Source: an uncultured Eubacteriales bacterium (GTDB taxonomy: Bacteria; Bacillota; Clostridia; Christensenellales; UBA1242). Taken from it: DNA of 45,123 nt. Made by a program: the position numbers and the translations under genes. Each line of letters begins with the position of its first letter. Position 1 is the first letter of the stretch. Of this stretch, positions 1-11,657 are shown piece after piece. Where the stretch lies: positions 1 to 45,123 of the forward strand of contig USSZ01000002.1 of assembly GCA_900557645.1 (NCBI GenBank), written 5' to 3'. The notes under the pieces are model-generated. The model made no database searches. It saw only the letters and a list, made by a program, of their open reading frames with translations, and had not been told where the DNA came from.

Positions 1-3000
1 AAAATATACCATGTGTTATTTTATTGGAATTTGATCTTGGTATTACAATCTTCACATTATTGTATTCTAACCCTTGTGACTTGTGAATAGAGACTGCATA
101 TGCTATTTGAAATGGTACTATAGACTTTAGTTTTGATTCTTCACGTTCTTCTTCTGTTGTCCCTCCTTGATTTTCAAATACAGTTAATTTTATAACGGTA
201 GCATCATCTAAATAATCACATACTTCAAAGTCGCTAAATCTAGTATCAAACTCTGTTAATAATATTTCTGCTTTTATTTTAAATGTTATATAATTTTCAC
301 CTTGCTCTATACCAATAATTTTTCCTTTTAAATTGTTATATAATTCTGGGAATCTTTTTGATTCATTAAATAGAATTGGATCTTTCACTTTATATTTCCA
401 TTCATGCCATTTATACTCATGTCCATCATTTGAATCCTGAAAATAATTATTGATATTGTTTAAACCATATCTACCATCATAATTTAAACACAACACAATT
501 TTGTCTTCATCACTGTCTATATCGTTAAATAAATTTTCTGTAATTCTTTCAGAAAATGGACCATCTATTACTAACTTTTCAGTAATTTGTGGACCTAAAA
601 TACGAACTTCATTCCACAAACTTTTTATCTTTTTATTTTCTGTTCTCCATGTATTATTTAATTCAATCATAGACTTTCCCTCTACAATATTTTTAACATA
701 ATAAAACCAATTGCCAAATTCAATAGATTCTATTTGATAAATATCACCCACCATTACAAATAAAGCATCTTGATTAATTTTATTTAATAAAATACTCATT
801 GTCCTATTATCAATAGTACTACATTCATCTATAAAAATAACATCATAATTTACAATATTTTTTCCTCTAACTATTTGATCTGCAACAGCAAATTTAGAAT
901 TTATTCCAGGTGTCGATATCCTTCGTTTTAAATTTTGAAGTGCTGTATGTGTTTTTGTTAAAAACAATTTACTTTTCCCTTCCATTAATTGGGATATATA
1001 ATCCATTAATTGAGTTTTTCCTGTGCCAGCCGCGCCATAAATTAGTAATAATCTTGAATCAACAAAAAGCTTTTGAACTGCGATTTTCTTTAATTCATCA
1101 TCTTTAAAAAGTTCTTTATGTTCTTTTATAAAATTTTCATTAACTCTTTTTTGCCCTCCAATACCTGATATTGTGAGTTCTTTTAACTTATTAATAATTT
1201 CTAGTGTCTGACTTTCATAATTTTGTATATAAACATACTTATCATTTTCTAAAACTTTAAATCCTTGTGCAATATCCCATGAATTTAATTTTGAATTATA
1301 AACATCTATTTTTTGCAATAAATCTTCATTTAAATCTTCCTTGTTTAAATAAATTTCACCAGAATCTTCTACTTTCTTTTTTATACTAATATATGGCAAA
1401 TAATCTTTAACAGTATTAATCCCAACAGCTCTTAATACATCTCTAGAAAAATGTGTATTGTTTGTTTTACTATTAGGTATATTATACAAACAAGGTTTAT
1501 TTTCAAAAGGGGTACATCGTGAAGTTATTTTCAGAGATTTATTATAAAATGATTTTGTTTCATCAGGTTTTCTCTTTATGCTTTCAATAATTTCTTCTTT
1601 CATTCTTATCAAAATATACCTAATTATGTTTTTTCCATAAGTATTGCTGCTATTATTAAAATTTTTATGTATGTCAACTAGAACATTTTTAAAGTATTGT
1701 GTATTTTTATTCTCATAAATGCAACTAATGGCTTGATTAAATGAAAATTCATTTAAGTCTATTAAATCTAACAAATTCATGCCCGTTTTTTGTAAAAAAT
1801 CCATTAAAGAACTATATTCTCCATAATTTCCAGACAATTTCAATTCATGATTTAATAAACTCGAAAACTTATTTAAAACACCAGGGTCAATTGAAACTTT
1901 CCAACTTGTTACAACTTTTATTCTAGAAGGTTTAGTCCATAATTCAATTATATCTTCAACAAAGCCCACTTGAATTGTGTAATTAGTTGGAATATTTTCA
2001 TGCGTATAGACAATAAATCTATTAAACTTAGAAGCATAAAGATCAGATAATTGCAATGTCATCTCATAATATCTTTTACCGTTTATATAAAAAGGCGTTT
2101 TCTTCTCTACAAAATATCTTGATTTATTATATCCTGCCATTTGATTCTTATTTTTTTCTACAATTTGGCAAACTTTTTCATAATAATCTTTATCTTCTTC
2201 AGTTAAATCCAAAGGGAATTTTTCTAAATTAGTTAAAACTTCTACTTTATAATATTCTTTTAAGTATTCTCTTATTCCCCATAAATAATCATAATATTTT
2301 AATAAAAGTCTTTCACTTTGACCATCTTCAGGTATTCTTCTAGCTAAGTATCTTAATGATTGATAAAAATCAGTTAAAAAATGAGTGCTTCTGTCAAATA
2401 AAGCTTTCTCCCATGCTATTGCGATAGTTGGATTTTCAACGCCACACCGTACTGCATTTAATAATAATGTCGCCATACAAAAATCTTCTAATGACACCAT
2501 CATTTTTTTAGATACACTTTCTCTAGTTTCGTCTAACAATTCAATTCTATCAATTGCTTCACATATATCATTATTTCGTTCTTTTATAATTTTAAGTATT
2601 TCAATTTTATTCCTTCTAGTATCGTCTAATTTTCTAATAAATGAATGCTGTTCAGCTATTTTTGTTAAATTTTTAACAAATTCTTTAATAGATTCTTCCG
2701 AACATTTAATTTCTTCATTCTTATCAAAAGTAATGGTAACACTATTGTTTTTGAAATCTATATTGTTTATAAAATTAGGTGAAAGATATTTCCAAAAAAC
2801 TCTTTCATGCGTTCTTACTTTGGGTTTTATAACTACAAATAGTATCCCTGGATCTGAAGTGACATTTTTGTATATATAAGCAGGAAATGCAAGGCTTTTT
2901 AACGAGTATTTTATACCATCATTAATTTCTTCATATTGAGAATCTGTACCTTTTATCTGAACAGTAAAATTTTGAAATGGTCTTCTAGAAATATTTGGAT

Positions 3001-3178
3001 CATTTATTAATTCAAAATTGCCATCAGTATTAGGCCATTTATCTTCAGAAGCAAAATTTGTGGAAATATTACTACATCTTAAAAAAAACTCTAGTACACT
3101 AACAGCAGCCCTATCTTCTTCACTTCTTTCACTATGTGTTTTTATATGTCTTTCAATATCTTCATCTTTTATTTCCAT
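1..3178 (-). CDS. Large nuclease-helicase fusion, 3' end beyond the window edge: DUF4365-like PD-(D/E)xK N-domain, about 600 aa of unknown function, then a RecD-like SF1 helicase
   Basis: Hand translation of the minus strand from ATG at 3178 (GGAG 6 nt upstream) gives 1059 sense codons down to position 2. It is absent from the ORF track because it has no in-window stop. N-terminal motifs: WPNTDGNFELIN..FTVQIKGT..ILFVVIKP..VFWKYL (DUF4365-like layout). C-terminal motifs: Walker A LLLIYGAAGTGKTQL (~1005-1040), Walker B DVIFIDECS (~815-845), MVGDIYQ, and AYAVSIHKSQGLEY (~64-95), typical of AAA_30/UvrD_C_2 RecD-like helicases. Confidence 0.8.
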   Translation of the reverse strand, partial: MEIKDEDIERHIKTHSERSEEDRAAVSVLEFFLRCSNISTNFASEDKWPNTDGNFELINDPNISRRPFQNFTVQIKGTDSQYEEINDGIKYSLKSLAFPAYIYKNVTSDPGILFVVIKPKVRTHERVFWKYLSPNFINNIDFKNNSVTITFDKNEEIKCSEESIKEFVKNLTKIAEQHSFIRKLDDTRRNKIEILKIIKERNNDICEAIDRIELLDETRESVSKKMMVSLEDFCMATLLLNAVRCGVENPTIAIAWEKALFDRSTHFLTDFYQSLRYLARRIPEDGQSERLLLKYYDYLWGIREYLKEYYKVEVLTNLEKFPLDLTEEDKDYYEKVCQIVEKNKNQMAGYNKSRYFVEKKTPFYINGKRYYEMTLQLSDLYASKFNRFIVYTHENIPTNYTIQVGFVEDIIELWTKPSRIKVVTSWKVSIDPGVLNKFSSLLNHELKLSGNYGEYSSLMDFLQKTGMNLLDLIDLNEFSFNQAISCIYENKNTQYFKNVLVDIHKNFNNSSNTYGKNIIRYILIRMKEEIIESIKRKPDETKSFYNKSLKITSRCTPFENKPCLYNIPNSKTNNTHFSRDVLRAVGINTVKDYLPYISIKKKVEDSGEIYLNKEDLNEDLLQKIDVYNSKLNSWDIAQGFKVLENDKYVYIQNYESQTLEIINKLKELTISGIGGQKRVNENFIKEHKELFKDDELKKIAVQKLFVDSRLLLIYGAAGTGKTQLMDYISQLMEGKSKLFLTKTHTALQNLKRRISTPGINSKFAVADQIVRGKNIVNYDVIFIDECSTIDNRTMSILLNKINQDALFVMVGDIYQIESIEFGNWFYYVKNIVEGKSMIELNNTWRTENKKIKSLWNEVRILGPQITEKLVIDGPFSERITENLFNDIDSDEDKIVLCLNYDGRYGLNNINNYFQDSNDGHEYKWHEWKYKVKDPILFNESKRFPELYNNLKGKIIGIEQGENYITFKIKAEILLTEFDTRFSDFEVCDYLDDATVIKLTVFENQGGTTEEEREESKLKSIVPFQIAYAVSIHKSQGLEYNNVKIVIPRSNSNKITHGIF

Positions 3179-3254
3179 AAATACTCCATATTACTAATTT
3201 TTTAACTATATATTATGTTAATATATCTTAGTGCTAAAACATTAAAATTTTCAG

Positions 3255-3878
3255 TTATAATTGCTTTTCTACATCAATTTCTATTACCTTTTTAGGGCTA
3301 GTATATCTTAACATATCAGCTTCTTTTATCTTTGTGTTGCCAATATATGAAAAGAATTTTTTTGCATCTTCTATGCTAAAAAATCTCTTATTATAACCTT
3401 CAACAAAATAATAATTTTCTTCTATTTTTTGACCATTGCCAGCACCAAAATTTTTATCAGCAATTGAATTAACTCTAGCAAGTAAATGTCCGTTTGGTTT
3501 TAATATTCGCTTTATTTCTTTCATTATTGCTATTGTTGTTTTTTCGTCAAAATAATGTAAACTTAAATCTGCAATAACCAAATCAAATGTTATATTTTTA
3601 AAAGGCAGTGGATTTGAAATATCAAGCCATTTTGTTTCTACACTCTTAAGTTGTTCTTTTAGGTGTTTTAATGCAACATCTGAATAATCACAAGCAATCA
3701 CTTTAAATCCGCGTTCAGTTAAATACAAAGTGTCATTTCCAACTCCACATCCAAGGTCTAAAACTTTAGTTTTACATTTATCTAAAATATCTTTATATTT
3801 ATCTAACCAATTATCATAGGTTATTTTGCCCATCGAGTATGTCTTATGAGTTTCATCCCAATAGTCCTTAAATTGCAT
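3255..3878 (-). CDS. Class I SAM-dependent methyltransferase (small-molecule type, not a recognisable DNA methyltransferase)
   Basis: 207-aa ORF. Motif I is VLDLGCGVGNDTLYL, with acidic post-I VIACDYS and DLVIADLSLHYF. No DPPY/NPPY/PCQ DNA-methyltransferase motifs. GGAGG lies 7 nt upstream. Its ATG shares one base with the TAA of the upstream helicase gene (TAATG). Confidence 0.85.
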   Translation of the reverse strand: MQFKDYWDETHKTYSMGKITYDNWLDKYKDILDKCKTKVLDLGCGVGNDTLYLTERGFKVIACDYSDVALKHLKEQLKSVETKWLDISNPLPFKNITFDLVIADLSLHYFDEKTTIAIMKEIKRILKPNGHLLARVNSIADKNFGAGNGQKIEENYYFVEGYNKRFFSIEDAKKFFSYIGNTKIKEADMLRYTSPKKVIEIDVEKQL

Positions 3879-6379
3879 TATAATCCTCCTAAATTCTTAT
3901 AGTATTCTTTTAAAAATTGTTTTTCTTTATTTACAATATTTTGCTTTATTTCTTCAGTAAGTTTTGACCATAAGATTGGATTAAAAGATAAAATATTTAA
4001 GTCTTTACTAAAATACACAAATCTTTTTCTTTCAAACTTTTCGAAAGGATTATCTAAAATGCTTTTCTTCATTTTTGTTCTATCATTTAAGTATTTATAA
4101 TTAAAAACACAATTTTTACGGTCAACAGGTAAATTTCTATCTAATCTATCAATGTAAAACTTTGAATATTTATCAATAAGGTTATCAATATTAACTTCAC
4201 CTTCTTTATCGGCAAGTTCAAACATACTTAACATAAAAATCAATTTAAAAGAATAGGTTAAAGTATTTTCATCTATAAAATCAATAAAATCTTGCAAAAT
4301 CGTCGTTTCATTATGGTCTTTTAATTGTTTTGCTTGTTTAATTTTTGCAATGTCTTCATTTGAAAAATAAGGCATAAGTTTATTTCCTATTGGCAATGAC
4401 AAACTTGAAAAACTTGGATTTATTTTTACCCATTTACTTAAAGTATTTGTTCCAACAAATAACTCACGAGCGGTTTGTTCTAGCGACTTATAATCTTTAT
4501 ATTTTTCTTCGAAAGTGAAAACATCTATTTCTTGCATAGATATTTCAGTTTCTGAAAGTCCTAAAATGTTTAGATAATCAAAATTATTATTTATAACACC
4601 CGCAAAATCGCTGTAATTAGCAATTTTGAATAATGAATTAAAACTCCAAGGTGTAAGTTTTCCTTCATAGTTATCAACAACATCAATAACATACAAACAT
4701 TCTTTTCCTGGATAATTTCGTAAACCACGACCAATTTGTTGCAGATATAAGACTTTTGAAAGTGTTGGTCTAGCCATAACAACAATTTCAGTTTGTGGAC
4801 AATCCCAACCATCACTTATAACTTGACAGCTTAAAAGAAATTGAATTTCTTTATTTTTATAACTTTCAAAAATGGTATCATTATCTTTATTAAAACCATA
4901 AACTGCTCTTGCTTTTATTCCAGTATCGTTTAGCATTTTTTCTAGTTTTTTGCAGTGCTGAATGTTAACACAAAAGACTATTCCTTGTTTATAAAAATCT
5001 TTTTGTGGTGCGAAATATTTTTTTATTGTATTTGTAATCAACTCATTTCTAGAATCTATAACAAGCGTTTTTTCAAGATCTGCATAGTTGTAGTCTTTTC
5101 CATTATACCTGACTTCACTTAAGTCAATATTACTGATAAGTCTATAACATCTTATATTTGAAATTACACCTTTTTCAATCGCTTCTCGTAATGTCAATTT
5201 TGTTTCATATTGTCCAAACATTTCATCAAGTTTACGCTTGTCTAATCTTTCTGGTGTTGCTGTTAATCCAATTAAATATTTTGGTGTAAAGTATTGTAAT
5301 GTCTTTTTACAATTTGCCGCTTGAGCATGGTGTGCTTCATCAAAAACTATGTAATCATAATAGTCTTTTAAACGAAAATTCTTTTCAAGAAAAACTGTAT
5401 TATAATATTTTATTTCAATATCGAGTTTACCATTAAAAATTGCCACTCTCTTTTGCCAATCTTCTTTAATTGGAATTGATGGCACCATTATCAAAACTTT
5501 TTTAATTTTGTTATCTTCTGCTAGTTGCTTTAAATCTTCTATTACTATTTGAGATTTTCCTGTCCCTGTTGGAATAACAATAAGCGATGTATTAATGCCT
5601 TCTTCTCTTGATTTGTTTATATCTTCAAGAATTTTCTCTTGATGTTCATAGAGTTTAAACTTTCTTTGTTCTTTTACAACAACTGAATTTATAAAGTTTT
5701 CTTTATCACCTAAATATGATTTTATATTGTCAATCGTTTGCTCTTTAAAAGATAAATTTTGACTCGAAAAACGGAACACTTTAAAACCATACAAAACTAA
5801 TGTGTTTTGTTTTTCCAACTGTCTTTCGTATGCTTTATTACCTATTAAACAGGGGTGATGATAGTGAACACCATTCTCTTCAATAGCATAATTTCCATTT
5901 TTAGTTTCAACAACATAGTCAACAAAAGCATTTCTACCATTATCCAAAGACACAGAATATTCTTTCTTTAAATATTCTGTCGCATTATCACCATAAGTTT
6001 CTACAAACAAATCTTCAAAAGTTTTTTCAAGTGGGGTGTTGTCTAAATGTGCATTGTCAAAAGAACCACCATCATCCTTTATTTTTATATCTACTGGTGT
6101 TTTATTTAACCATTCGTTAATTTTTGTATATGTATCATCATTTACAAAATTAAATCTGTAAAGCTTATCATATTCAGCCATATATTTATTTTGCATTTCA
6201 CAATACTTAGAATAATCAAAAACTACTTCTTTATCGTTTTCACAAATATCATTATCCAATATTACACAAGTATTATCTTTTTTAAACACAAAAGAATTAT
6301 GGGTATCATCAAATGAATACTCATCTAAAAATGTAAGTCCTAACTTGCAAACAGCATTTTTATTTATCATTCTTCTCAC
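3878..6379 (-). CDS. SF2 (ResIII/DEAH-type) helicase with an N-terminal Vsr/DUF559-like endonuclease domain and a C-terminal HTH plus unknown domain
   Basis: 833-aa ORF. The GTG at 6379 is less likely as the start than the ATG at 6370. Nuclease-like core (aa 115-205, nt 5765-6037): E..LF..YG...AFVDYVVETKNGNYAIEENGVHYHH...YERQLEKQNTLVLYGFKVFRF. Helicase motifs: I VIPTGTGKSQ, II VFDEAHH, III LTATP, VI QQIGRGLR. The C-terminal ~190 aa (nt ~3881-4460) is unassigned. Confidence 0.85.
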   Translation of the reverse strand: MRRMINKNAVCKLGLTFLDEYSFDDTHNSFVFKKDNTCVILDNDICENDKEVVFDYSKYCEMQNKYMAEYDKLYRFNFVNDDTYTKINEWLNKTPVDIKIKDDGGSFDNAHLDNTPLEKTFEDLFVETYGDNATEYLKKEYSVSLDNGRNAFVDYVVETKNGNYAIEENGVHYHHPCLIGNKAYERQLEKQNTLVLYGFKVFRFSSQNLSFKEQTIDNIKSYLGDKENFINSVVVKEQRKFKLYEHQEKILEDINKSREEGINTSLIVIPTGTGKSQIVIEDLKQLAEDNKIKKVLIMVPSIPIKEDWQKRVAIFNGKLDIEIKYYNTVFLEKNFRLKDYYDYIVFDEAHHAQAANCKKTLQYFTPKYLIGLTATPERLDKRKLDEMFGQYETKLTLREAIEKGVISNIRCYRLISNIDLSEVRYNGKDYNYADLEKTLVIDSRNELITNTIKKYFAPQKDFYKQGIVFCVNIQHCKKLEKMLNDTGIKARAVYGFNKDNDTIFESYKNKEIQFLLSCQVISDGWDCPQTEIVVMARPTLSKVLYLQQIGRGLRNYPGKECLYVIDVVDNYEGKLTPWSFNSLFKIANYSDFAGVINNNFDYLNILGLSETEISMQEIDVFTFEEKYKDYKSLEQTARELFVGTNTLSKWVKINPSFSSLSLPIGNKLMPYFSNEDIAKIKQAKQLKDHNETTILQDFIDFIDENTLTYSFKLIFMLSMFELADKEGEVNIDNLIDKYSKFYIDRLDRNLPVDRKNCVFNYKYLNDRTKMKKSILDNPFEKFERKRFVYFSKDLNILSFNPILWSKLTEEIKQNIVNKEKQFLKEYYKNLGGL

Positions 6380-6686
6380 TTACACTTTCAAGAAAAATTT
6401 TCTTTTTGAAAGCACCTCTTTTGTCAACCTTTGCATTCCTTATTTTTTCAAAATCTTCATAAGAAACACCTTTAACAGCAAGAATTGCTCTTAAAACTTC
6501 TTCCAAATCAGCAAGTTCTTCCACTTCTCCACTTTCTAAATATTCCTTAAGTTCTTCTTGCATTTTTGTATTAAGAGTTTCTAAATACTCATCATCTTCC
6601 ATAATTCTTGTCACACAAGTTTTGCCATTATCAGCAACAATTATCTCTGGAATTTTATCTCTAACAAGTTTGTTATATACTTTCAT
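6360..6686 (-). CDS. MazG-like / PRA-PH-like all-alpha nucleoside triphosphate pyrophosphohydrolase
   Basis: 108-aa ORF starting MKVYNKLVRDKIPEII, with the acidic metal-binding helix pair QEELKEYLESGEVEELADLEEVL. GGAG RBS is present. The 3' end overlaps the helicase start by 11-20 nt. Confidence 0.7.
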   Translation of the reverse strand: MKVYNKLVRDKIPEIIVADNGKTCVTRIMEDDEYLETLNTKMQEELKEYLESGEVEELADLEEVLRAILAVKGVSYEDFEKIRNAKVDKRGAFKKKIFLESVSEKNDK

Positions 6687-6792
6687 AATGTTATCTCCTT
6701 AAAAGCATTATAACATATTTTTTTGTAAATTTATTTAAAAATCTACAAAAATCATAATTTTATGTTATACTTTAATTAAGAGAGGGATAATA

Positions 6793-7878
6793 ATGAAAAA
6801 AATTGAAAAGGCATATTTTATTTATAGATGTTTTGCTGAAATGGTTCTTGATATAAAAGACACATATATTAATTATTTAGTTGTTGAAAAATATCATATG
6901 AAGCAATTTTCTTACTATAATGCTTCTTTACACTTTCAAGCTTGCATTTTAAACTTTTATGCTATTTTTCAAAAATTCTTATGCAAAATATTTAGAAAGA
7001 TTTTAAAGGATAATGCTTTGCAATATTTTGGCAGTGAACAAATATTGTTTTCTAAATTATATAAATATAAATACAATAAAACTAATTTAATTAATGATTT
7101 AATAGAAGAAAAAATTAACAACTTTACACGTGGAACTTCAGATATATCTAATTTATGTAAAAATTTAGGAATTATTAATCTCGGAGCACTTAATGAATTA
7201 AAAATTGATTATGAAGAATTTTGCGCACGAAGAAACATCTATGCGCATGGTATTGATCACATAACTAAAGAGTATTTAATAATAAGCAATGAAGTGAATA
7301 ATTCTTGGTTAAAAGACAATAAACTTGTTGAAAATCAAGAATATATAGTTCATTGCATGAATCTTATATATAAGTTATTTTTCCAATTGTATTATGATTT
7401 AGATATTATAACAAAAGAAAAAATTGATAGATCAATAATAGAATCTTTAAATACGTTTATTTATGAAGAATTTTATAATAAAGGGAATTGGGAAGTTTCA
7501 AAATATATTTATGCTAGATTAAAAAATATTAAATGTAAAATTACAAAAGCAAATACTACTCTATATAAACAAATGTATTTTGTAAACTTTCTCCATTCTT
7601 GTAAAATGCTTGGAGAAAATGTAGTGCAAAAAATAAAAAATATAAAATTTAGATATGATTATAAAAAATATGAAATTGTGAAAAATGCAATTTTAGAAGA
7701 AAATAAACTTGTTTATGAAGGTATAATAGCTTTACAAAAACAAAATACAGATATTAATAAAAGTATAAGTATTGAAAATGTTAATACATGGCCTGTTTTT
7801 AACTCTTTTAGATGCTCGGATTATTATAAAAAATTATTAATGAATTTATCTACAGTTTCTGAAATCAAAGAAAAATAG
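6793..7878 (+). CDS. HEPN-domain protein (Rx4H motif), Abi-like / RiboL-PSP-HEPN-like, with an unknown C-terminal half
   Basis: 361-aa ORF with RBS GAGAGGG. EFCARRNIYAHGIDH carries R147-x4-H152 (nt 7231-7248). It sits divergent to the helicase operon. Confidence 0.6.
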   Translation: MKKIEKAYFIYRCFAEMVLDIKDTYINYLVVEKYHMKQFSYYNASLHFQACILNFYAIFQKFLCKIFRKILKDNALQYFGSEQILFSKLYKYKYNKTNLINDLIEEKINNFTRGTSDISNLCKNLGIINLGALNELKIDYEEFCARRNIYAHGIDHITKEYLIISNEVNNSWLKDNKLVENQEYIVHCMNLIYKLFFQLYYDLDIITKEKIDRSIIESLNTFIYEEFYNKGNWEVSKYIYARLKNIKCKITKANTTLYKQMYFVNFLHSCKMLGENVVQKIKNIKFRYDYKKYEIVKNAILEENKLVYEGIIALQKQNTDINKSISIENVNTWPVFNSFRCSDYYKKLLMNLSTVSEIKEK

Positions 7879-8028
7879 CATTCATTTTAAAATTGAAAAA
7901 TTCTTGAAATAGATATTAAATTTTAGAATTATTATGTATATTAAAAAATGTTATTTTAAATACATTGTAATTGACAATGAATTTTTAAATGAAAGTTCAA
8001 TCTGAATAGTGTTGGTGCCACCAAAAGG

Positions 8029-8063
8029 TTGTCGTTTGAACTCAAACGGCAATCTATTATTTT
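8029..8063 (+). terminator. Probable intrinsic terminator downstream of the HEPN gene
   Basis: Stem ttgtcgtttg (8029-8038) / caaacggcaa (8043-8052), 10 bp with one G-U pair and loop aact, followed by T-rich tctattattttc. Confidence 0.45.
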
Positions 8064-8183
8064 CTATCTATAAAAAATTATTTCTTTCATTAGAAATTAT
8101 ATAAAATATTTTATAACAAAAAAATATGCTAAATATATTTAATTTAAATATAAATAGTTTCTCAAAATTTGTAAATTGTATTT

Positions 8184-9206
8184 GTGATGATAAAATATAG
8201 ATTTCTATCAATTACATTAAAACTTAAACATAATAATTTTTTTACAAAAAAGAACATTGACTTTGATTATTATTCAAACTATAATATATATATGAATAAC
8301 ACTATATTGAAATTTGTAATGTCTCATAATATAGATTTAAAAACCATAGAAAAATTTGATGATATTAAAGTTGATAACAAAGAAGATATCAACAATATTA
8401 TTGATGAAAATAAATTTTATAGCAAATTTAATGTCTTAAAAAATATTTGCATTGCAGACATTAAAGGTTATGACTATAAATACGTTTCATTAAATAATGA
8501 TAATTTTTTAGAAAATATGTCTCGTTTTTTTGATGAAAATGGTTTTAGTTATGAAAAAAGATCTATTTCAATGTTGGATTATTCAACAAGTGAAATTATT
8601 GATAAACTTTCAAATAGTTTTAGAAAAGAACCTATATGCTTATTAGAAGCAGACAAACACAAATATGTTATAGGTAACAATGGGCTTCATAGATATCATG
8701 TATTAAAAGCACATTATTTAAAAGAATTATCTTTATTAGATAAAAATGATCTTACATCTATAAAATCATTAAGGGATAAATACACGATAGAAACTCGAGT
8801 AGATGAAATTGATTATTTTAAAACTTATTCATCTTACATTTTAAAATTAATTGGTGAACTCTATGATGATAGATTAAAATTCGAAAGCGAACTTGACGAA
8901 TATTACCAACCTACCCAAAATATAATTATGCGACATTATAATGATTTTGAAAAAAGCAAAATACTTAATGATAATCAACTTCTATCACTCTTAAAATCAT
9001 CAGTATCTGAAATTTTATTAAGAAATTCAACCTCAAAAAAAATAAGTAAACAATTAATAAATTCAATTAAACAAACCTATGAAAAATTTGAGAGTTTTAA
9101 AGAATATTGTTTAGAATACTTACCAGAAGTTATTCATTACATTGATAAAACTTATAAATACTCTTACTCTTATTCATATATGGAGGAGATACCATGCAGA
9201 TTATAA
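8184..9206 (+). CDS. ParB/Srx-fold (DGQHR/DUF262-like) domain protein; start uncertain
   Basis: 340-aa ORF. EPICLLEADKHKYVIGNNGLHRYHVLKAHYL (nt ~8650-8717) fits the ParB N-domain pattern (Pi.v...g.y.viDG.HR..a). No SD precedes any candidate start (8184 GTG, 8187, 8292 ATG). Confidence 0.5.
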   Translation: MMIKYRFLSITLKLKHNNFFTKKNIDFDYYSNYNIYMNNTILKFVMSHNIDLKTIEKFDDIKVDNKEDINNIIDENKFYSKFNVLKNICIADIKGYDYKYVSLNNDNFLENMSRFFDENGFSYEKRSISMLDYSTSEIIDKLSNSFRKEPICLLEADKHKYVIGNNGLHRYHVLKAHYLKELSLLDKNDLTSIKSLRDKYTIETRVDEIDYFKTYSSYILKLIGELYDDRLKFESELDEYYQPTQNIIMRHYNDFEKSKILNDNQLLSLLKSSVSEILLRNSTSKKISKQLINSIKQTYEKFESFKEYCLEYLPEVIHYIDKTYKYSYSYSYMEEIPCRL

Positions 9207-9529
9207 AATGCACTAATTCTGACAAGCCAAACACAGAAAAATATATTATGAAAATTAACAACCAAGAAATTGGATTTGGCTATTTGATTGAAACTGAAAT
9301 TAATCCTATAGAAATATTTATAAATGAAGACCAAAGATCTAATGGTTATGGTAAACTATTATTTGCAAAACTATTACAAATTTGTAAAGAAAAAGGATTA
9401 AAAGTATTATTTTTTGAACTTAAAAATGAAGATTATAGAATGATAAACATAATCACATCTTTAGGAGCACGGCATATTGGGACAAATTATGGTATCAATA
9501 AATTTGTTTTGCCTGTTAATTTAGAATAA
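9194..9529 (+). CDS. Minimal GNAT-fold N-acetyltransferase (111 aa)
   Basis: Motif A-like QRSNGYGKLLFAKLLQICKEKG. GGAGG lies upstream inside the preceding gene, and the ORF overlaps that gene by 13 nt. Confidence 0.6.
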   Translation: MQIIKCTNSDKPNTEKYIMKINNQEIGFGYLIETEINPIEIFINEDQRSNGYGKLLFAKLLQICKEKGLKVLFFELKNEDYRMINIITSLGARHIGTNYGINKFVLPVNLE

Positions 9530-9537
9530 TTAAAAAA

Positions 9538-9567
9538 AACATCTTACGGTTTAAGATGTTTTTTTTA
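9538..9567. terminator. Bidirectional intrinsic terminator between the convergent GNAT and aminopeptidase genes
   Basis: Stem aacatctta / taagatgtt (9 bp) with loop cggtt, an A-run on the left and T7 on the right. Confidence 0.7.
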
Positions 9568-10962
9568 TTCAAAAAATGCTTTATATCCTTTATATGCACT
9601 ATATAAATCGGCTTTTGAAATCAATTCATAAGGTGCGTGCATCGATATCACGGGAACTCCTATGTCAACAGTATCTATATTTAATTGTGCAATAAATTTT
9701 GCTACTGTTCCACCTCCACCAATATCAACTTTACCAAGTTCTGAAGTTTGCCAAATTATATTATGTTTTGAAAAAATATCTCGAATTCTCTGAACAAGTT
9801 CGGCAGATGCATCATTTGAATCTGATTTTCCTCCACCTCCAGTATATTTATTCATACATACGCCACATGATAATATAGCAGCATTATTTTTTTCAAATAC
9901 ATCAGCAAAATTAGAGTCATATCCGGCAGTAACATCTGCTGAAATACACATAGATTTTTGTCTAACTTTTCGAACATTTTTTTTAAGTGATATGCAAATT
10001 TCATCAATTATATCTTCATAAATCTTACTTTTGATACCTGTTACACCTTCACTTCCTATTTCTTCTTTATCTACCAAAATACATAAAACTGTATTTTTAT
10101 TTCTAGAATCAACGATGGCTTTTAAAGATGCATAAGCACAAACCTTATCATCATGTCCATATGCTCCAAGTAGTGATCTATCAAAACCAATATCCCTTGG
10201 TGGCAATGCAGGCACAATACTTAATTCTGCACTAATAAAATCTTCTTCTGTAATATGATATTCATTATATAAAATTTGCAAGACATTTTCTTTAATTTTA
10301 TCTTTTAACTGCTCATCTTTTAATGCTTTTCCACCCACAACAATATTTAATTGTTCGCCATTAATAAAATCATTAGCCTTTAATTCCATTTGACTTTTCC
10401 CTAAATGAGGTAATAAATCATTGATATAAAAAACGGGATCATTTACATTATCACCTATATTTATATTTATTTTTTTATTATCCTTTGTAAAAACAACTCC
10501 ATGAATTGACAATGGCATTGCTGTCCATTGGTATTTTTTTATTCCACCATAATAATGGGTTTTAAAAAAACATAAACCATCGCTTTCATATATTGGGACT
10601 TGTTTTAAATCAAGTCTTGGCGAATCCAAATGACTGACTATAATTCTTAACCCTTCTTTCTCAATGTCATTTTCTCCTATTTTAAAAAGAACAATTCCCT
10701 TTCCTCTATTTGAAATAAATTTTTTATCGCCAACTTTTAACAAATCACCAAAACTATATTCACTAAAATGATATTTCATTGCCTCACTAGAAACATAATC
10801 GTTTACTTCTCTTTCTGTTTTACATTTAGTCATAAACTCTTTATAATTTTCTGCAAAATCAAAAATTTCTTTTTCCTCTTGTTTACTTGCCAATTCAAAA
10901 TAATTTCTTTTCACATATCTGTAAGATTCCACTTTTTGTTTATCTGACCCTATGTTTTCCAT
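9565..10962 (-). CDS. M18-family aminopeptidase
   Basis: 465-aa ORF with SHLDSPRLDLK, HDDKVC, LVDKEEIGSEG and ISMHAPYE motifs typical of M18 aminopeptidase 1. GGGGG RBS. Confidence 0.85.
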   Translation of the reverse strand: MENIGSDKQKVESYRYVKRNYFELASKQEEKEIFDFAENYKEFMTKCKTEREVNDYVSSEAMKYHFSEYSFGDLLKVGDKKFISNRGKGIVLFKIGENDIEKEGLRIIVSHLDSPRLDLKQVPIYESDGLCFFKTHYYGGIKKYQWTAMPLSIHGVVFTKDNKKININIGDNVNDPVFYINDLLPHLGKSQMELKANDFINGEQLNIVVGGKALKDEQLKDKIKENVLQILYNEYHITEEDFISAELSIVPALPPRDIGFDRSLLGAYGHDDKVCAYASLKAIVDSRNKNTVLCILVDKEEIGSEGVTGIKSKIYEDIIDEICISLKKNVRKVRQKSMCISADVTAGYDSNFADVFEKNNAAILSCGVCMNKYTGGGGKSDSNDASAELVQRIRDIFSKHNIIWQTSELGKVDIGGGGTVAKFIAQLNIDTVDIGVPVISMHAPYELISKADLYSAYKGYKAFFE

Positions 10963-11060
10963 ATATCCCCCGTATAAATTATTATTTACAAAATATATTA
11001 AAATAATCTATTTTATATATTAGAAAATAATAAAAAAACACCTTAATTGGCGTTTTAATA

Positions 11061-11657
11061 TCAAAATCTAAGTTCTTCAGGCAGTATAACCTCACAGTAT
11101 CCCTGTTTTGCTCCACACAAAGGACATTCCTCCCATGCTTCTTTATCAAAACTAACATGTCCACATGCTGGACATACCCACGCAACTTTTTTTGCTTTTT
11201 TATATAATTGCTTATTTTTCATTTGATTGTATAATTCTTCAAATACTTTTGCATGTCTTATTTCAACTTCTCTAATCATATTAAAAATATGGGCTATTTC
11301 TTCGAAACCTTCTTCCATAGCAACCTTTTCAAACTCGGTATATACTTTTGCTTCATCAAGTTCATCTTCACATAAAAGTTTTAAGTTATCAAGAAGATCC
11401 CACTTTTCTTTAAAGGGATAACCTGCACAAATATCAATATTATCAACTTGTTTCATTTCGCTGTCTTGTATTTGCATATATAAAACACGGGCATGATTAA
11501 ATTCCTGATATGCTATTTTATCTATTAATGTTGCTATTGCCTCATAGCCATTATATCTAAAACCATATTCACAAAATTCATATCTAGTCCGTGCAGCACA
11601 TTCTGCAGTATATGCTCTTGCCAAATTTATAAATGTTTGACTATCTTTTAATTTCAT
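11061..11657 (-). CDS. Rubrerythrin-family protein (ferritin-like di-iron domain plus C-terminal rubredoxin-like CxxC..CxxC)
   Basis: 198-aa ORF with E..EF.H helices and WVCPACGHV...CPLCGA. GGAGGAA RBS. Confidence 0.85.
   Translation of the reverse strand: MKLKDSQTFINLARAYTAECAARTRYEFCEYGFRYNGYEAIATLIDKIAYQEFNHARVLYMQIQDSEMKQVDNIDICAGYPFKEKWDLLDNLKLLCEDELDEAKVYTEFEKVAMEEGFEEIAHIFNMIREVEIRHAKVFEELYNQMKNKQLYKKAKKVAWVCPACGHVSFDKEAWEECPLCGAKQGYCEVILPEELRF

Follow-up and report, generated by a model that had tools for sequence, protein, structure and literature searches.

SauUSI, a Type IV restriction enzyme of solved structure (7CLG), carries a nuclease of the PLD type, a superfamily 2 (SF2) translocase and a DNA-recognition tail, DUF3427, on a single polypeptide, and acts alone. 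Type I and Type III restriction-modification (R-M) systems likewise combine an ATP-dependent SF2 motor and a PD-(D/E)xK-type nuclease with an adjacent methyltransferase. Other candidate defence systems have been proposed from their position in the genome: the 145 PDC candidates were put forward by 'guilt-by-embedding', on the grounds that they are embedded in BREX, DISARM or type I R-M loci (Payne et al., bioRxiv 10.1101/2024.01.29.577857). MADS, a further system, is a multi-gene mad operon in which mad6-8 are mandatory in the authors' model (bioRxiv 10.1101/2023.03.30.534895). Here we describe a ~6.7-kb block of four minus-strand genes at positions 1-6686 of contig USSZ01000002.1. The window, i.e. 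the whole stretch of DNA that was analysed, comprises positions 1-45,123 of this contig. Two modules probably make up this block, which would lie in a defence island bordering an integrated element. The core of module A (3255-6686) consists of two conserved genes, for a putative restriction-type enzyme and its dedicated methyltransferase; in this lineage the core is preceded by a gene for a MazG-like protein. The second module is gene 4, an independent single-gene candidate already catalogued as PDC-S53.

Organization of the locus

The first-pass annotation, an earlier reading of the same DNA, had described four tightly packed minus-strand genes, and direct reading of the sequence bore out their common direction, coordinates and overlaps. 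The features of the block are the following.

6687..6792, no strand: divergent intergenic region, likely cassette promoter and ribosome-binding site; read from sequence
6360..6686, minus strand: MazG-like gene, 108 amino acids (aa); open reading frame (ORF) with ribosome-binding site; first gene of the cassette, optional
3878..6370, minus strand: nuclease-motor (helicase) gene, 830 aa; the ORF extends over 3878-6379
5666..6070, minus strand: Vsr/DUF559-type PD-(D/E)xK nuclease-like domain of the motor protein, aa 101-235; sub-threshold match to MTES_1575
4646..5665, minus strand: SF2 ATPase/translocase core, aa 236-575; Pfam, NCBIfam and PDB sequence matches
3881..4645, minus strand: C-terminal DNA-binding region, aa 576-830; MerR/Xis/RacA-type winged helix-turn-helix (wHTH), then a winged-helix-like domain
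3255..3878, minus strand: methyltransferase gene, 207 aa; class-I, S-adenosylmethionine (SAM)-dependent
1..3178, minus strand: gene 4 (PDC-S53 family), a separate module; ATG at 3178; truncated by the window edge

The overlap between the MazG-like and the helicase gene, given earlier as 11-20 nt, is real. All helicase homologues are ~830 aa long, therefore the ATG at 6370 is a likelier start than the ORF limit at 6379, and with this start the overlap with the stop codon of the MazG-like gene is 11 nt. Base 3878 is common to the TAA of the helicase and the ATG of the methyltransferase gene (TAATG). The methyltransferase gene is separated from gene 4 by a 76-nt gap, and a GGAG precedes the ATG of gene 4, as had been noted. 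A sequence scan found no terminator-like site between the four genes. Ahead of the MazG-like ORF the sequence reads AGGAG at 6699-6695 and an extended -10 element, TGnTATAAT, at 6715-6707 of the minus strand. A full -35/-10 pair was not listed in 6687..6792 by a consensus promoter scan. As judged by this reading, the region is the likely site of the cassette promoter. In the lineage of the window the block sits between housekeeping genes and a large serine recombinase.

A nuclease-motor protein and a methyltransferase form the conserved unit

The helicase family was surveyed in 38 other loci (6 metagenome look-ups and 32 loci from a scan of one genome per species) with helicase identities of 53-95%. 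A gene for a ~200-aa methyltransferase adjoined the helicase gene on the same strand in 31 of the 38. Four of the seven loci missing it were contigs cut at or near the helicase, so that the pair was present in 31 of 34 informative loci. In the close relatives the methyltransferase gene follows the helicase gene, in eight other loci it directly precedes it, and the pairing is kept even at 41% helicase identity, in loci L049 and L073. The MazG-like gene was present in 13 of the 38 loci, always immediately upstream of the helicase. Gene 4 was present in none, and this included cassettes 93-95% identical to that of the window. The four-gene order, whose recurrence across genomes had been put forward as a check, was thus not conserved. 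The conserved unit is the nuclease-motor protein together with the ~200-aa class-I SAM methyltransferase, which is a near-obligate partner of the motor, translationally coupled to it through the overlapping start and stop codons.

The motor matched ResIII (4.5e-26) and Helicase_C (2e-12) in Pfam. Its best sequence match in the PDB was SauUSI (7CLG, E-value 7.2e-36, residues 243-590), and the next closest was the type I HsdR 3H1T (2.6e-21). The NCBIfam model for EcoAI-type HsdR matched at 2e-28, with 99 bits against a cut-off of 550, and PADLOC gave helicase-core matches to mREase_IV (1e-31) and PbeA; the family scores far below the equivalog cut-offs. The motor motifs PTGTGKS, DEAH, TATP and QQxGRGxR are invariant in the homologues, and the SF2 core is the most conserved part of the protein (mean pairwise identity 0.68).

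Residues 101-235 are a candidate nuclease domain of the Vsr/DUF559 type, as suggested by weak matches to MTES_1575 in 8 of 11 family members (17.9-20.4 bits against a cut-off of 38.2, best E-value 5.4e-5) and by a DUF559 match of the same region in one of the 11. MTES_1575 has been described as a novel Vsr REase (PMC3710099). Residues D151, E164, N166, G167, H171, Q188, N189 and R200 of this region are invariant. The block had been said to encode two helicase superfamilies, each fused to a nuclease-like domain. Its SF2 (ResIII, Helicase_C), SF1 RecD2-like and DUF4365 parts were confirmed; the Vsr match stayed below threshold. The first 100 residues (window 6070-6370) are the least conserved part of the protein, with a mean identity of 0.41. 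They keep invariant C35, C43 and C57 and a highly conserved H24, and may form a small metal-binding module.

The C-terminal 256 residues gave an AlphaFold2 (AF2) model with a mean predicted local distance difference test score (pLDDT) of 77.5. Foldseek found no global match to this model in the PDB. Local matches over ~55 residues were obtained with RacA, BldC, MtaN and Xis (probability 0.9-1.0), and weaker ones with the Cdc6 winged helix and with MukE/ScpB/JetB. DUF3427 was not found in the motor by a Pfam scan, and the C-terminal model is also unlike DUF3427; a modified-cytosine reader in the tail was rejected, the model having no match to the DUF3427 of SauUSI. Comparison of N- and C-terminal profiles with PDB sequences returned only chance-level matches (SarA, CHMP3, homeobox), none of them plausible for these domains. 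With a mean pairwise identity of 0.61-0.63 the tail is about as conserved as the motor, therefore it is not a diversifying specificity domain.

In Pfam the methyltransferase falls into the Methyltransf_25/11/TehB group (Methyltransf_25 4e-19, TehB 6e-12), and no DNA-methylase family was among its 17 Pfam matches, in agreement with the first-pass statement that it lacks the catalytic motifs of DNA methyltransferases. In the PDB it matched small-molecule and RNA enzymes (TehB, TPMT, phosphoethanolamine methyltransferase and METTL6 types). The motif-IV region reads ADLSLHY, and the protein, at 207 aa, is too short to include a specificity domain. The best PADLOC match was mad2 (1.7e-21), a partial one covering positions 259-398 of 492. 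The partner methyltransferases fall into two clades, 53-93% and only ~20% identical to the window enzyme, while their helicases stay 57-66% identical. The two clades still share motifs outside the SAM pocket.

Function of module A

What the data establish is how the proteins are built, how the genes are linked and in what surroundings they lie. On these grounds we infer that module A most likely encodes an ATP-dependent enzyme of restriction-like type, served by a methyltransferase of its own that is non-canonical. The wHTH/winged-helix tail would bind DNA, ATP-driven translocation would bring the Vsr-type nuclease to foreign DNA, which the nuclease would cut, and the partner methyltransferase would give a self/non-self signal or otherwise license the enzyme, in the logic of R-M systems. 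DNA cleavage, the substrate of the methyltransferase and the defence phenotype are predicted parts of this scheme.

A bolder proposal, which we put forward only tentatively and consider doubtful, is that module A represents a new class of restriction-like immunity, in which a methyltransferase of 'small-molecule type' licenses a SauUSI-like Vsr-nuclease translocase. The MazG-like NTPase, which is highly conserved, would then be a shared nucleotide-sensing or sanitising helper for Vsr-helicase, HNH and DUF488 effectors. As the licensing signal one may envisage a non-canonical mark on DNA, a methylated nucleotide or metabolite, or a guard that depends on SAM.

Several points weigh against a restriction-like enzyme licensed by its methyltransferase. 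The defence role of module A rests on association. Whereas specificity domains in R-M systems diversify, the C-terminal DNA-binding region of the motor protein is conserved. The methyltransferase has neither a DNA-methylase family match nor a target-recognition domain, and the two clades of the partner are only ~20% identical despite helicases that are 57-66% identical. Three loci with full flanks (L015, L030 and L032) contain an intact helicase without the methyltransferase, and such helicases are hard to reconcile with obligatory self-protection.

These features, namely the non-canonical methyltransferase with its two clades, the conserved tail and the three helicases without a partner, keep alive the alternative of a Type IV-like enzyme, for which module A would depend on a modification or a structure of the DNA. 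According to this alternative the motor alone reads foreign DNA through the conserved wHTH tail and host DNA is unmarked, while the methyltransferase and the MazG-like protein act on nucleotides or on a small molecule. They could, for example, neutralise or sense non-canonical phage nucleotides, or tune the activity. The closest solved relative of the motor is itself a Type IV enzyme and the best PADLOC matches of the helicase are mREase_IV models; the methyltransferase resembles small-molecule enzymes (TehB, TPMT, phosphoethanolamine methyltransferase), and the MazG-like NTPase is met again in association with nucleases of the HNH and Vsr types. However, the motor has no modified-base reader of the DUF3427, SRA or PUA type, the near-obligate coupled methyltransferase is unlike what is found with the known single-gene Type IV enzymes, and no substrate could be predicted. 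We regard a Type IV-like enzyme as possible but rather unlikely.

If the restriction-like enzyme favoured here does restrict phages or plasmids, it would be an ATP-dependent restriction type whose partner methyltransferase lies outside the known DNA-methylase families. It would then point to an unrecognised chemistry of self-marking or licensing.

Gene 4 is a separate module of the PDC-S53 family

The fourth gene, described earlier as giant, encodes 1059 aa inside the window, whereas the full-length protein (P0121) has 1105 aa. It matched the PADLOC model PDC-S53 with an E-value of 4.3e-254 and 843.7 bits, so the earlier statement that none of the listed systems was matched is wrong for this gene. 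Residues 194-1059 align with model positions 4-851 of 900, and the rest lies past the window edge. Pfam detected DUF4365 (30.3 bits, cut-off 24.3) and, in the SF1 helicase part, AAA_30 and UvrD_C_2; NCBIfam identified RecD2 (8.9e-25). Besides DUF4365 and the RecD2-like SF1 helicase there is a stretch of roughly 500 aa without a family match.

Close relatives of the cassette (95% helicase identity) have the MazG-like, helicase and methyltransferase genes followed by unrelated HTH, YpsA, WYL and BrxA genes, and an integrase is another downstream neighbour among the cassettes 93-95% identical to that of the window. In a reverse survey, 85 loci with relatives of gene 4 were collected, 57 of which were informative, i.e. 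had at least 3 kb of upstream sequence. HsdS, HsdM or HsdR was encoded upstream on the same strand in 27 of the 57. One group of gene 4 relatives comes after a SauUSI-like PLD-helicase-DUF3427 enzyme, others stand alone, and the neighbours otherwise vary. The helicase family of module A was present in only one of the 85 loci, L073, where a 203-aa methyltransferase, an 831-aa helicase (41% identity) and a gene 4 relative (46% identity) stand in a row.

These results bear on the first-pass proposal that the four genes together make up a single new defence system, in which two nuclease-helicases would cooperate. In its favour, the genes are co-directional, with a gap of only 76 nt and no terminator-like site between them, the same four genes occur on several gut metagenome contigs, and L073 contains an independent, diverged array. 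However, the metagenome contigs represent one locus and are not independent occurrences, gene 4 is missing even beside nearly identical cassettes, the pair accompanies gene 4 relatives in a single locus, and gene 4 is a stand-alone PADLOC candidate linked mostly to type I R-M. A single four-gene system is thus not supported, and we consider it very unlikely; the four genes are two neighbouring candidate modules. It counts against a complete separation of the two that the L073 array, the 76-nt gap and the lack of a terminator leave room for cooperation of module A with gene 4.

PDC-S53 appears to be a facultative neighbour that recurs downstream of translocating restriction-type systems, with no fixed place as a cassette component. 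It thereby gains a concrete context as their habitual downstream companion. A more general lesson is that a system is not defined by the tight packing of its genes within a defence island.

The surveyed loci contained some other recurrent arrangements. PDC-S53 relatives are often found at the 3' end of type I R-M operons (L044-L046, positions 4816-11345; also L057 and L067-L069). Small genes recur between the R-M genes and the PDC-S53 relatives, encoding a YgjP-like metallopeptidase, DUF6414, or an AAA_21 ATPase with a 243-aa protein, and a conserved ORF of ~160 aa follows gene 4 in both L040 and L044. At 1077-4734 of L073, upstream of the array, there are genes for an SF1 helicase that carries a DUF2726 domain and for an HNH protein; the two may be another candidate defence pair.

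The MazG-like gene is an optional accessory

The MazG-like protein had no direct match in Pfam, NCBIfam or the PDB, and searches with the single sequence or a small profile gave only chance-level matches (GerD, MarR, designed helices). The assignment made in the first-pass annotation was recovered through relatives. The family is very large (8164 clusters at 50% identity, E-value <= 1e-3). Among 150 representatives, 16 matched the Pfam MazG-like family PF12643 (best 9.2e-6) and 12 matched PRA-PH, PF01503 (best 1.4e-7). In the same representatives E45 and E48 of the EExxE motif are invariant and E44 is at least 90% conserved, as is each residue of the ExxDxxE motif (E57, D60, E63). An AF2 model, in which four helices were predicted, was built from a shallow alignment of 28 sequences, all at least 80% identical; with a pLDDT of 52 and no Foldseek match it was set aside as evidence either way. 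By its relatives and motifs, the protein is predicted to be an all-alpha relative of NTP pyrophosphatases.

Copies of the gene with 85-90% identity were also found ahead of other cargo. In loci L134-L136 an 85%-identical MazG-like gene overlaps the start of an HNH nuclease gene by the same 11 nt (in L134, positions 5001-6291, the nuclease is a 326-aa HNH endonuclease). This pair adjoins genes for a deoxynucleotidase (NT5C) and a nucleotide-kinase-like protein in a chromosomal rpsF-ssb-rpsR neighbourhood. In L130-L133 the MazG-like gene is followed by a DUF488-DUF488-DuOB cassette. Some members of the family are fused to DUF559 or MTES_1575 nucleases. The MazG-like gene is therefore an optional accessory, a modular helper that precedes several nuclease genes, and a family of more than 8000 clusters at 50% identity appears as a modular nuclease partner.

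Downstream of a 90%-identical MazG-like gene and the DUF488-DUF488-DuOB genes, L130 (5001-9172) has a duplicate of the 21-codon 3' end of the MazG-like gene and then codons 1-106 of the helicase. It looks as if recombination at the conserved sequence of the MazG-like gene had exchanged the cargo.

Genomic context and spread

Genes in the neighbourhood of the pair encode BrxL, Wadjet JetA/JetC, Lamassu LmuA, MzaC, DrmD, PARIS AriA, TIR proteins, GmrSD and several PDC candidates. The first-pass view that the genes are of the defence type and lie in an island or a mobile element is supported by these neighbours. Instead of an immune system, module A could be a cassette with which integrative and conjugative elements process or repair DNA, for instance their own during transfer, or an addiction cassette of such elements, but this is highly improbable: although module A often lies beside integrases, MobL, ArdA, PcfJ and Rep genes, it also occurs in defence islands of the chromosome together with components of BREX, Wadjet, Lamassu, PARIS, GmrSD and type I R-M, and its architecture mirrors that of restriction enzymes.

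The helicase family extends over several phyla, its hosts being Clostridia, Bacilli, Erysipelotrichaceae, Lachnospiraceae, Bacteroidales, Sphaerochaetaceae and one archaeon, the methanogen Methanomicrobium mobile BP (L032, NZ_JOMF01000009.1, 9685-12493). The archaeal locus has a MazG-like gene (77% identity) and a helicase gene (80% identity) without the methyltransferase. The 80% identity of the helicase indicates a recent horizontal transfer, and the locus looks like the product of a recent transfer across domains in the rumen or gut followed by loss of the partner gene. The cassette passes readily between anaerobes of the gut and the rumen, with one copy in a methanogen, and could therefore shape gene flow there. 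In a plasmid collection only helicase-core matches at ~30% identity were found. A phage collection gave one full-length match, L049 (MT836124.1, 'UNVERIFIED: Bacteriophage sp.'). Its genes are those of TRAP transporters, GmrSD, the methyltransferase-helicase pair and a subtilase, and the record looks like bacterial chromosomal DNA, not phage.

The two genes flanking the block on the plus strand (6793-7878, 361 aa, and 8184-9206, 340 aa) had been annotated as HEPN and ParB-like. Among the flanking genes named in the first-pass annotation, only that for GNAT was confirmed. Neither the 361-aa nor the 340-aa protein had a sequence match in Pfam, NCBIfam, PADLOC or the PDB, and they keep only a motif-level resemblance (an RxxxxH motif and a GLHR motif). 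Both genes were absent from all 38 other helicase loci.

Comparison with known systems

Module A, a cassette of three closely coupled genes, matches no named system in PADLOC v2, and to this extent the first-pass description was upheld. Signatures of DISARM, BREX, Druantia, Dpd, Hachiman, Gabija and Zorya gave only marginal helicase-core matches (DpdE/F, HamB, GajB; E-values 1e-5 to 6e-3). No account of the cassette was found in literature searches directed at PDC-S53, COG4997, MTES_1575 or the joint occurrence of MazG, helicase, methyltransferase and Vsr, and the DefensePredictor preprint contained no matching mention of it. Membership in MADS was rejected: the mad2 match covers the generic SAM-binding region only and there are no other mad genes. 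The PADLOC match of gene 4 to mad8 was marginal.

Module A resembles Hhe, Nhi and Hna in the broad concept of a nuclease joined to a helicase for defence. These are single-gene systems, whereas module A has a partner methyltransferase. No Hhe, Nhi or Hna model was among the PADLOC matches of either helicase at an E-value of <= 0.01; models for the three are presumably contained in PADLOC.

The MazG-like protein resembles MazG and HisE in its acidic EExxE and ExxD motifs, in the four predicted helices and in having relatives that match the MazG-like and PRA-PH families. In contrast to these, the window protein is below detection for every curated model and belongs to a distinct, very large family.

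Gene 4 matches the PDC-S53 model almost end to end, and its relatives sit with type I R-M, just as PDC candidates were found. The window protein differs from the model in an extra N-terminal DUF4365 region outside it, the match starting at residue 194.

Type I and Type III R-M systems are close to module A in the ATP-dependent SF2 motor, the nuclease, which in module A is a candidate of the PD-(D/E)xK type, and the adjacent methyltransferase, and PDC-S53 follows the module A pair in L073 as it follows type I R-M operons. However, module A has no Pfam match to N6_Mtase (HsdM) or Methylase_S (HsdS), which sets it apart from Type I, and no Mod-type DNA amino-methyltransferase, DPPY-type family match or specificity domain, which sets it apart from Type III. 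Nor is its DNA-binding domain hypervariable as in either type.

SauUSI, the closest solved-structure relative of the motor, has a common plan with it, a nuclease, an SF2 translocase and a DNA-recognition tail on a single polypeptide, in line with the mREase_IV models being the best PADLOC matches of the helicase. The parts at the two ends differ. The nuclease of SauUSI is a PLD domain, whereas the candidate nuclease of module A is Vsr/DUF559-like with no PLDc match, and in place of the DUF3427 tail module A has a wHTH/winged-helix tail. SauUSI acts alone, whereas the motor of module A is almost always paired with a methyltransferase.

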